This document shows positions 18,718-20,420 of a DNA stretch of 64,000 nt, piece after piece. The translations under genes were made by a program, and so were the position numbers. Numbering within the stretch: position 1 is the first letter of the stretch; the number at the start of each line of letters is the position of its first letter. The notes under the pieces were generated by a model. That model was not told where the DNA came from. It did no database searches and was given only the letters and a program-made list of their open reading frames with translations. The DNA comes from Minisyncoccota bacterium (GTDB lineage: Bacteria > Patescibacteriota > Minisyncoccia > Phycocordibacterales > UBA918), in assembly GCA_041389025.1 (NCBI GenBank), contig JAWKSP010000001.1, positions 64,002 to 128,001 on the forward strand, written 5' to 3'.

Positions 18718-19055
18718 GTACGCTTCATTGAGGAGACAAAGATAAATTTAATCTAAACCTATCTTTGCCAAATTAAAATTACATTTTGGAATAAATATCT
18801 TTCTCAAAACTTAAACTGTGAGATAAAACATTGTACTTTCCATATCTTTTTATACTTTCTAGTATTCCTTTTACTCTTTCAATTGCCTCTTCTTCCGAAG
18901 AGACATTTTCTATTGGAATAATTCCTGTTACAGGGCATGTAAACCCCATCTCTTCAGGTAAATCATTAATCCTGAAAGTATAGTGTAAAAAGTATCCATT
19001 TTTTTTACTCATGATTTCTTCTCCTCTTTTATTTCGCTTCCTCAATGAAGCCTAC
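18718..19055 (-). mobile_element. IVS-like element at the tip of 23S helix 45 (E. coli ~1170) with ~18-nt terminal inverted repeats GTAGGCTTCATTGAGGAG
   Basis: Exon context CCGAAACUGCGGAUUU | insertion | ACAAGUGGUAGGAGAGCG corresponds to helix 45. The ends gtacgcttcattgaggag and cttcctcaatgaagcctac are inverted repeats. An internal terminal hairpin caaagata...tatctttg is present. Confidence 0.55.
18779..19012 (-). CDS. Putative 77-aa protein encoded within the helix-45 IVS
   Basis: Strong SD AAAAGAGGAGAAG 7 nt before the AUG. MSKKNGYFLHYTFRINDLPEEMGFTCPVTGIIPIENVSSEEEAIERVKGILESIKRYGKYNVLSHSLSFEKDIYSKM. The tool's upstream start lies inside the inverted repeat. Confidence 0.4.
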   Translation of the reverse strand: MSKKNGYFLHYTFRINDLPEEMGFTCPVTGIIPIENVSSEEEAIERVKGILESIKRYGKYNVLSHSLSFEKDIYSKM

Positions 19056-20257
19056 AAATCCGCAGTTTCGGTAATATGCTTGAGCCCCGATCATCTTCGG
19101 CGCAAGGACTCTCGACCAGTGAGCTGTTACGCTTTCTTTAAAGGATGGCTGCTTCTAAGCCAACCTCCTGGCTGTTTGAGAATCCTCACCTCCTCATTTT
19201 GCACTGAGCATATATTTAGGGACCTTAACTGGCGATCTGGGCTGTTTCCCTTTTGACCAATGGAGCTTCTCCCCCATAGTCTAACTGCCGCGCTGTAACC
19301 AACTGGTATTCGGAGTTTGATAAAAGTGACGAGGTTTCCCCCTATTCGCTCTTGCCAGTGCTCTACCCCCAGTGGGATCACGCGACGCCAACCCTAAAGC
19401 TGTTTCGGAGAGAACCAGCTATTACGGAATTCGATAAGCTTTTCACTCCTTACCACAAGTCATCCGATGGTTTTGTACGGCCAACCGGTTCGGGCCTCCA
19501 CGACCTATTACAGTCGCTTCACCCTGCTCATGGCAAGCTCATCCCGCTTCGGGTCGTACCCCTGCCCTATATTCGCGCTTTTAACGCTCGCTTTCACTGT
19601 GCCTACGTGGGATTACCACTTAAACAAAGGACAAAGGTACACTCGCCGGCTCATTCTTCAATAGGCACGCCGTAGAGATGCATCACTCTATATAGCACTA
19701 AATTTTATGAACTCTTTAAAGAGAGGGAAGTTAAGTAAAAACTCATTTTCCCAGACAAGCTTGGTAAGCCGTTATCTTACCAACTACCTAAAAACGTCTT
19801 TGACTCCCCTCTTTAAAAAATTCACAAAGTGCTATACACAGTGATGCACCTCGTCGACTCCTTGTAGATGTATGGTTTCAGATCTATTTCACTCCCCTCT
19901 CCGGGGTTCTTTTCACCTTTCCCTCACGGTACTAGTTCACTATCGGTCTTTAAGAATATTTAGCCTTACCAGTTAGTACTGGTGGATTCACCCGAGCTAT
20001 TCATGTCTCGGGCTACTCAGGAACAAAAACCAAAGAGATGTATACATTTCGAATACAGGACTATTACCTTCTGGGGTCATGCTTTCCAGCACATTTTCCT
20101 ATATATACATTTTGTAACTCTTCGCAACTAAATGCCGTTTTTGCCCTACAACCCCATACATATAAATATGTATGGTTTGGGCTCTTCCCGTTTCGCTCGC
20201 CGCTACTAAGAGAATCGCAAGAACCTTCTTCCTGCCTGTAATGGCTCGTAGGCTTCA

Positions 20258-20420
20258 TTGAGGAGACAAAACTTAGGTTTTGTCTCAAAAATAACTTAAC
20301 TAAAGTACTGAATGTATGTTTGGTAAGACAACCATAAAATTAACAATAACCACATTACCTTCATAAACATTGGTGACATACTTTCCTCCTCCTCTTTTTT
20401 ATTTCCTCAATGAAGCCTAC
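20258..20420 (-). mobile_element. Second IVS-like element in 23S domain I (E. coli ~200-225 region) with the same terminal inverted repeats as the helix-45 IVS
   Basis: Ends gtaggcttcattgaggag (20258-20275) and tttcctcaatgaagcctac (20402-20420). Internal perfect hairpin gagacaaaacttaggttttgtctc. SD-led 27-codon ORF. Confidence 0.5.
20296..20379 (-). CDS. Putative 27-aa hydrophobic peptide in the second IVS
   Basis: AAAGAGGAGGAGGAAAGU-AUG, then MSPMFMKVMWLLLILWLSYQTYIQYFS*. Confidence 0.2.
   Translation of the reverse strand: MSPMFMKVMWLLLILWLSYQTYIQYFS

Follow-up and report, generated by a model that had tools for sequence, protein, structure and literature searches.

The 23S rRNA gene in the 64,000-nt stretch analysed here (contig JAWKSP010000001.1 of a Minisyncoccota bacterium; in the following, the window) is interrupted by two insertions with matching inverted ends, and we were interested whether these ends delimit a mobile DNA element or form a helix of the ribosomal RNA. 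The gene is a complete bacterial large-subunit rRNA gene at 14949-20663 on the minus strand (5715 nt; Rfam RF02541, 2013 bits, model positions 1-2925), and six insertions, amounting to about 2.8 kb, were located in it by comparison with E. coli rrlH and from the Rfam alignment. The two in question are element 1, an insertion in helix 45 (18718-19055, minus strand; E. coli 1163-1223), and element 2 (20248-20420, minus strand), a helix-45-type element on the tip of a helix-12 expansion. With a probability of about 60% we take both to be members of a family of insertions of the intervening sequence (IVS) type, found in the 23S rRNA of Parcubacteria-like bacteria of the candidate phyla radiation (CPR) and having helix 45 as its home.

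A search of the whole window at up to 3 mismatches detected four arms against 0.07 expected by chance, namely the left arms GTACGCTTCATTGAGGAG (18718-18735) and GTAGGCTTCATTGAGGAG (20248-20265) and two right arms (19038-19055 and 20403-20420), both the reverse complement of GTAGGCTTCATTGAGGAA. An earlier note, made from the sequence of the window alone, had described two insertions with matching inverted ends, open reading frames (ORFs) of 77 and 27 aa led by a Shine-Dalgarno (SD) sequence, and hairpins, all of which was confirmed. Its coordinates were right for element 1 (18718-19055), but the start of element 2, given as 20258, is at 20248; of the arm sequences that it quoted, the left arm at 18718-18735 differs by one mismatch and the right arms read TTCCTCAATGAAGCCTAC instead of CTCC. 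In rRNA sense both elements have the same layout, with a 5' arm GUAGGCUUCAUUGAGGAA, an A-rich leader, the SD, AUG and ORF, a hairpin and a 3' arm (C)UCCUCAAUGAAGC(G/C)UAC, the innermost base of both 5' arms being A (GAGGAA). The leaders read AAAUAAAAGAGGAGAAGAAAUCAUG in element 1 and AAUAAAAAAGAGGAGGAGGAAAGUAUG in element 2, and contain AAGAGGAG or GGAGGAGG; leader and 19 nt at the 3' end are shared between the elements (repeats D1 and D2).

All parts of element 1 lie on the minus strand. The 5' strand of the basal stem (RNA AUUUGUAGGCUUCAUUGAGGA, 19039-19059), whose outer AUUUGUA is native helix 45 according to sequence, covariation and an insertion-free relative (L094, see below), is followed by the SD (19021-19028) 8 nt ahead of the AUG, by the ORF of 77 aa (MSKKNGYFLHYTFRIN..., 18779-19012 including the stop, 234 of the 338 nt), by a hairpin without U-tract abutting the 3' arm (18735-18769) and by the 3' strand of the stem (RNA UCCUCAAUGAAGCGUACAAGU, 18714-18734); the stem contains a single G-G mismatch. 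Element 2, on the same strand, comprises the 5' arm (20403-20420), the SD AAGAGGAGGAGG (20385-20396), a putative coding ORF of 27 aa, hydrophobic in character (MSPMFMKVMWLLLILWLSYQTYIQYFS, 20296-20379), a hairpin abutting the 3' arm (inverted repeat I11, 20263-20286) and the 3' arm CUCCUCAAUGAAGCCUAC (20248-20265). The expansion that bears it (20216-20450, minus strand) lies at E. coli 227-232, in the loop of the small hairpin between H11 and H13 of domain I, which we take to be helix 12 of the standard numbering, and exceeds the Rfam consensus by 231 nt. Its outer stem (20228-20247 with 20421-20440, inverted repeat I1) was also detected in L011, L093, L096 and L120, all of them without the element, and is native to the lineage.

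Folding of both regions gave long stems (z = -6.2 for element 1 and -7.9 for element 2, compared to shuffles). As the hairpins of the inserts have no U-tracts, they are not terminators; no promoter above chance was found inside the inserts, and the 23S gene is preceded by a promoter-like site. Neither a group I ribozyme core (RF00028) nor any other Rfam family was detected in the inserts even at E = 1, and the same threshold led to nothing credible for all four IVS-like inserts of the gene and the ORF-less cargo of the L110 group described below.

To characterize the stem, covariation was analysed for ten members of the family (an eight-member version was also run). Within a helix of 21 bp, 99% of cells were paired and 8 of the 21 pairs had changed on both sides (21 cells), values reached by 0 of 500 shuffles, and sliding the register lowered the pairing to 32-49%. 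G·U pairs occur at two stem positions and would be A·C mismatches on the opposite strand. Ten consecutive pairs (CUUCAUUGAG) are invariant save one compensated change, which hints at recognition of a specific sequence. In L094, helix 45 is a native 22-nt hairpin, AUUCGUAC-AUUU-AUGUACGAGU; therefore the outer GUA(C)/(G)UAC and UUYGU/ACRA pairs of the presumed terminal inverted repeat (TIR) are native helix 45, and the part specific to the insertion is the core CUUCAUUGAGGA paired with UCCUCAAUGAAG. The suspicion that the TIR might be native sequence in insertion-free relatives hence applied to its outer third and not to its inner core. By these comparisons the repeat is an RNA helix under selection at the RNA level and not a DNA repeat, and the IVS-like character proposed in the earlier note, with inserts on helix tips and ends pairing into a long double-stranded stem, agrees with both folds and covariation. 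The anatomy that emerges for the family is one in which a helix of about 21-25 bp, its conserved core being CUUCAUUGAG paired with CUCAAUGAAG, takes the place of the tetraloop hairpin native to helix 45.

The same note had also considered a family resembling miniature inverted-repeat transposable elements (MITEs) that targets the tips of rRNA helices. In this reading, a non-autonomous DNA transposon with 18-bp TIRs would be moved by a transposase encoded elsewhere. Inverted ends common to two sites of one gene would be expected for such an element. Against it stands the stem itself, which covaries as RNA, has G·U pairs valid on the rRNA strand only, and in its outer part is the helix 45 that L094 possesses without any insertion. 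Evidence of another kind comes from the distribution of the family and is given in the following.

GTDB species representatives were scanned for the exact 17-mer, and among 54 loci only L004 and L011 turned out to be real members. The matches in two further CPR genomes, L005 and L017, are single arms outside rRNA, that of L005 being located in coding sequence, and an arm-like match at 4401 in L004 was rejected as a chance match since it is single and inside a LAGLIDADG ORF. Similarly, 37 loci with GTAGGCTTCATTGAGGAA in the metagenome scan were all single arms in protein-coding DNA, none in rRNA, consistent with chance, and viral contigs had no match to arm plus SD. Further 23S loci were gathered via homologues of the intron-encoded LAGLIDADG protein. 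The arrangement of stem, leader with SD, cargo and hairpin was found in L004, L011, L095/L098, the L110 group, L120, L121, L122 and L124, so that the check on related assemblies called for by the earlier note led to the same architecture in eight other CPR assemblies, mostly at helix 45.

At helix 45, L004 (Ca. Nomurabacteria) has the same arm pair as the window around a tRNA-like gene, L011 an SD and a membrane-type ORF of 69 aa, L095/L098 (Kaiserbacteria-like) an ORF of 63 aa, L120 an ORF of 53 aa ending in a transmembrane segment, and L121, a contig with a 23S fragment, a 76-aa homologue of the 77-aa ORF. The L110 group, whose 23S is about 70-76% identical to that of the window, carries a cargo of 240 nt. 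In L124 (ENA ERZ27315199 k141_7687600, 1745-2000) a group I intron hairpin is the site of the insert, which contains a membrane-type ORF of 54 aa; taken together with helix 12 of the window and helix 45 of many genomes, the family has more than one site, as had been anticipated. A short native helix 45 without insert is present in L094, in L096 and five others (28-nt hairpin), and in L111, L112 and L123. The cargo is evidently exchangeable within this frame, and comprises unrelated small ORFs (often for small membrane proteins), one tRNA-like gene and, in one lineage, a presumably non-coding RNA. L122 (GCA_021733405.1; helix 45, 8378-8574) has two 3' arms: its 5' arm is immediately followed by AAG and UCCUCAAUGAA, a minimal hairpin, and the second 3' arm lies about 150 nt further on. 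This could be an 'empty' stem with cargo added alongside, or could reflect alternative pairings.

Since this CPR genome was probably assembled from a metagenome, the ends shared by the two elements might in principle go back to a chimeric join or to a k-mer duplicated in the assembly. The same architecture is, however, present in independent NCBI, ENA and JGI assemblies, and both elements are placed exactly on helix tips of an otherwise complete and colinear 23S; an assembly artefact is so improbable that we regard it as negligible.

The mobility of the insertions, likewise suggested in the earlier note, became apparent from near-identical strains that differ in presence or absence of the insert. 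Upstream of helix 45, L095 and L096 agree in all of 665 nt (100%), and along the 7.9 kb downstream of it their identity is 99.7%; what sets them apart is the helix alone, with a 292-nt insert allele in L095 and the 28-nt native hairpin in L096. The insert is found in L095/L098, and L096, L097, L099, L101, L102 and L104 have the 28-nt hairpin instead, with flanks 99.7-100% identical. In L095 and L096 the whole helix is replaced, as expected from recombination in conserved rRNA flanks.

In addition to this allelic exchange, copies at two other sites appear to be of helix-45 origin. The copy in L124 combines a leader like that of L011, the 54-aa ORF and a hairpin like that of L121; in the group I intron at E. 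coli 2262/2263 it takes the place of a P8-like hairpin of 12-14 nt, close to the 5' side of the conserved CAGAGACUAYA, and it adjoins a LAGLIDADG_2 ORF. This copy and that on helix 12 of the window both start with UU(U/C)GU and finish with AC(A/G)A. As the ectopic copies keep native helix-45 pairs, the unit copied was roughly the whole helix-45 hairpin and the direction was from helix 45 to the new site. Element 2, for instance, carries the pairs UCGUA/UACGA native to helix 45. A recent origin of element 2 from element 1 was considered on account of the shared leader and 3' end; against it, the helix-45-type pairs of element 2 match those of L004 and L095 (UUCGU/ACGA) and not those of helix 45 in the window (UUUGU/ACAA).

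The third site in L124 and the presence/absence polymorphism among near-identical strains would again fit a MITE. Yet no target-site duplication was found at the flanks of any of the three kinds of site (GGAUUU/AAGUGG for helix 45, CUGGAU/GCCAUU for helix 12, GGGAAG/CACCCG for L124), the 64-kb window holds no copy outside the 23S gene, no transposase was found, the scans outside rRNA led only to the single arms mentioned above, and the polymorphism consists in the replacement of a whole helix and not in an insertion into it. The MITE-like proposal is therefore largely refuted and in our view very improbable, which returns us to an IVS-type family that is based on an RNA helix.

The question remains whether the cargo of this family is anything more than filling. 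Among the ORFs, that of 77 aa is the best supported. An exhaustive HMMER search led to a sole homologue, P0121 (76 aa, 51% identity, full-length, E 4.5e-15), whose ORF occupies the same helix-45 slot in L121, where the stem has covaried (GUGUGC/GCACAC), an SD is present and the hairpin differs. The comparison of both ORFs (nonsynonymous and synonymous differences per site, pN 0.28 and pS 0.63; dN/dS about 0.26) points to purifying selection, and the 77-aa ORF looks real, encoding a predicted protein. The earlier note had named lack of ORF conservation in homologous insertions as a possible refutation; the conservation of the ORF in L121 means that this objection fails. The profile search that it proposed, with this ORF against the 23S rRNA IVS protein family PF05635 (S23p), gave no match even at E = 1. 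Moreover, hmmscan against Pfam at E up to 1 assigned the 77-aa ORF to no family (only a sub-threshold match to DUF5745), a word-index protein search with this ORF led to no match, and exact look-ups of the 77-aa ORF and of the 217-aa LAGLIDADG protein of the same gene were equally negative. The AlphaFold2 (AF2) model of the protein is beta-beta-alpha-beta (pLDDT 72), for which Foldseek detected no PDB match at E <= 0.001 and no informative fold match. A relation to HicB-like antitoxins, considered because of a sequence pattern, was not supported by the Pfam or fold searches and was discarded.

Between the inserts of L095 and L098, all 7 differing positions are in the ORF, and 4 of the 6 changed codons are synonymous. 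Apart from the 77-aa/P0121 pair, no relationship exists among the cargo ORFs. In the window, only 1.2% of the ATGs follow a 6-mer SD, and 8 of its 37 long ORFs have one of 5 nt; by comparison, each of the three ORFs embedded in the rRNA gene (77, 27 and 54 aa, the last from the helix-63 insertion) has a 6-mer SD, and these are the strongest in the region. The cargo of L004 (6987-7060 of JACKGF010000001, minus strand) is a tRNA-like gene (anticodon GUA; 65.6 bits in Rfam) inside the helix-45 insert, with leader and trailer pairing together; if it matures, the 23S is necessarily broken at helix 45.

Some of these results would also be explained if the inserts were retained expansion segments, i.e. 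hairpins kept on the surface of the mature 23S, comparable to the expansion segments of eukaryotes, with ORFs that are silent, incidental or translated from degradation products only. Helix 12 is enlarged in every relative examined (75-399 nt), indicating that the lineage tolerates large additions to the ribosomal surface, and the L110 group manages without an ORF. On the other hand, purifying selection on the 77-aa ORF and SD strengths far above background would not be expected for silent filling, the tRNA-like cargo of L004 would need its ends processed, and classical helix-45 insertions of like geometry are excised by RNase III (PMC4990558). We consider retention in the mature rRNA unlikely. 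A selfish function might alternatively be assumed, with membrane peptides like type I toxins that are checked by the stem or by rapid processing and stabilise the insert in a single-copy rRNA gene. A strong transmembrane segment is predicted in 4 of 10 cargo ORFs, the 27-aa peptide of element 2 is hydrophobic, and the 5' arm ends in an SD-like GAGGA paired to UCCUC, all in line with such an addiction module. However, some cargos code for soluble alpha/beta proteins and others consist of a tRNA-like gene or of non-coding RNA, no antisense promoter above chance and no antitoxin RNA were detected, and no match to known families was obtained, so that this explanation is decidedly improbable as an account of the family.

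For the family of IVS-type insertions we instead suggest the following working. An insert would be transcribed as part of the pre-23S rRNA, because it has neither promoter nor terminator of its own. Its long perfect helix might then be cleaved by an RNase specific for double strands, with RNase III as the most likely candidate, and the ends not be rejoined, leaving a fragmented but functional 23S rRNA; in length the stem corresponds to what RNase III cleaves in classical IVSs (PMC4990558). The released small RNA, its ends protected by the stem and the 3' hairpin, could be translated from its own SD or, in L004, could undergo tRNA maturation. Cleavage, fragmentation of the 23S, translation of the ORFs and function of the cargo are what we infer here from the sequences. 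Spread could take two routes, a swap of the whole helix-45 hairpin by recombination in conserved flanks and, more rarely, copying to other exposed hairpin tips such as helix 12 or the P8-like intron hairpin in L124. Only tentatively, and at odds well short of even, do we go further and regard the helix-45 hairpin as a mobile expression slot, which by means of its conserved processing stem, SD leader and stabilising 3' hairpin would present interchangeable cargo (small membrane proteins, a small alpha/beta protein, even a tRNA) on the strongest transcript, have it freed by RNase III, and copy itself as a module to other exposed hairpins, group I introns included.

Several observations weigh against this interpretation. 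The family is rare in the collections scanned, the exact 17-18-mer having led to two GTDB species representatives and 0 JGI metagenome contigs. The L110 group has no SD-led ORF, so that the family can do without a protein product; in element 2, comparison lends no support to the 27-aa ORF, which might have arisen by chance in sequence this rich in AT. The tRNA-like cargo of L004 differs from a typical bacterial tRNA-Tyr in its short variable loop, in a C1·A72 mismatch and in a T stem containing U·U. The invariance of the 10-bp core could be due to recent shared ancestry and not to a recognition signal.

The remaining insertions of the window's 23S gene are all on the minus strand. The helix-63 insertion (17836-18195) has the design of elements 1 and 2 with another stem sequence: a stem of 27 bp (17859-17885 with 18166-18192), the SD AAAAGGAG, a membrane-type ORF of 54 aa (17940-18104, minus strand) and a hairpin. 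In the helix-63 slot of L004 and L106/L107, a common stem CCCAAUACACCACUUUG encloses different ORFs (73 and 79 aa). An 80-aa GIY-YIG ORF occurs in L095 (1517-1759), with equivalents in L093 and L096-L104, where its placement within the helix-63 insertion of these Kaiserbacteria-like loci is an estimate based on how long the exon after helix 45 is; if it is correct, some IVS-like hairpins carry a gene with a nuclease domain, which could give mobility at the DNA level. The helix-25 insertion (19673-19857; 183 nt), at a classical IVS site, is a near-perfect long hairpin (z = -9.6) with an SD-like AAAGAGGGGAG and no clear or convincing ORF. Intron-like insertions with LAGLIDADG ORFs were found at E. 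coli position 1952 (16749-17646; LAGLIDADG_1, 170 aa) and position 2500 (15334-16203; LAGLIDADG_2, 217 aa). Both are about 0.9 kb in length and at usual group I intron sites, with RF00028 below the gathering score on both. A palindrome, CCCAGCUGCAGAUUU(U)GC / GCAAAAUCUGCAG(C/U)UGGG, was found twice. In the position-2500 insertion of the window (15432-15471) it folds into a tight hairpin where the LAGLIDADG_2 ORF has its 3' end, and in L011 (1642-1740) it is the basal stem of an insertion on the helix-12 tip; it may represent another stem module that is shared.

The 23S gene is followed by tRNA-Asn, another tRNA and 5S (14442-14794), and no 16S gene was found in the 64-kb window. For the second tRNA (14627-14705; Rfam 51.5 bits) ARAGORN reported a four-base anticodon 'gttt' and type '???'. 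The 23S-tRNA-tRNA-5S layout is the same in L004, with other tRNAs. Neighbouring genes encode a mechanosensitive (MS) channel protein upstream and signal peptidase and a VWA protein downstream, a synteny in agreement with CPR contigs of the Parcubacteria type; the closest 23S found is that of L011, with 96% identity to the window gene.

IVSs have been known since 1990 and are usually taken as neutral junk with rRNA fragmentation as sole effect. In phage T7, RNase III cuts stem-loops of the early polycistronic mRNA and thereby frees translatable RNAs with hairpin-protected 3' ends; the likeness of this processing to the working suggested here is functional only, involves no homology, and concerns mRNA whereas the host transcript here is rRNA. 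A MITE, the other obvious comparison, is likewise short, non-autonomous and bounded by inverted ends at more than one site, and differs in the respects discussed above (no target-site duplication and no copy outside rRNA here, ends that are partly native helix, and RNA covariation including G·U pairs). Classical 23S IVSs occur at helices 9, 25 and 45 in Salmonella, Yersinia, Campylobacter, Leptospira, Coxiella and alpha-proteobacteria (PMC4990558). As in those, the loop of a surface helix (helix 45) is replaced by a long stem-loop of complementary ends, and the insertions are sporadic, strain-variable, thought to spread horizontally and transcribed within the pre-23S (PMC4990558). In contrast, the tip of the helix-12 expansion that carries element 2 and the intron hairpin in L124 are non-classical sites, the basal stem keeps a conserved core in lineages that diverged deeply, around a cargo that is exchanged, this cargo consists of unrelated small ORFs and a tRNA-like gene and has a strong SD and a 3' hairpin, and excision by RNase III would here be deduced from sequence. 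The S23p/PF05635 ORFs in IVSs of Leptospira, Coxiella and Brucella are likewise small ORFs inside a helix-45 insertion. S23p, the one ORF family of IVSs that has been studied, is a four-helix bundle, and in Coxiella its SD is poor and the protein apparently not produced (PMC4990558); the 77-aa ORF, as described above, lacks a match to this profile and is predicted to have a different fold.

For CPR bacteria, Tsurumaki et al. (2024) reported many short non-intron insertions at known IVS sites of 23S genes, suggested that they are IVSs and classed them as uncharacterised (PMC11270868). Their short insertions at the sites 23IS2 and 23IS4 are very probably the same class of object as the helix-45 family. 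The parts of that report available to us do not mention a family with a conserved stem, cargo ORFs led by an SD and lacking Pfam domains, tRNA-like cargo or ectopic copies. A stem family across lineages with exchangeable SD-led cargo, a tRNA-like cargo and copies in helix 12 and a group I intron thus appear to be undescribed, a statement that refers to the literature searched and does not prove absence elsewhere.

The helix-45 family does not fit easily with the view of IVSs as junk, as its stem is conserved across lineages whose rRNAs are 70-76% identical, and its cargo is exchanged, has the strongest ribosome-binding sites of the locus and, in one case, appears to be under purifying selection. 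The core CUUCAUUGAG would provide a concrete substrate for studying RNase III processing in CPR bacteria, and the helix-45 bases in the ectopic copies a tractable example of the spread of an RNA hairpin module. If the proposed working is true, the CPR '23S insertions of unknown type' would gain a function. If the cargo is indeed set free and translated, the rRNA operon would in these bacteria with minimal genomes also serve to express small proteins and possibly a tRNA, and a mobile expression slot of this kind, should it exist, would constitute a system of gene cassettes within rRNA.

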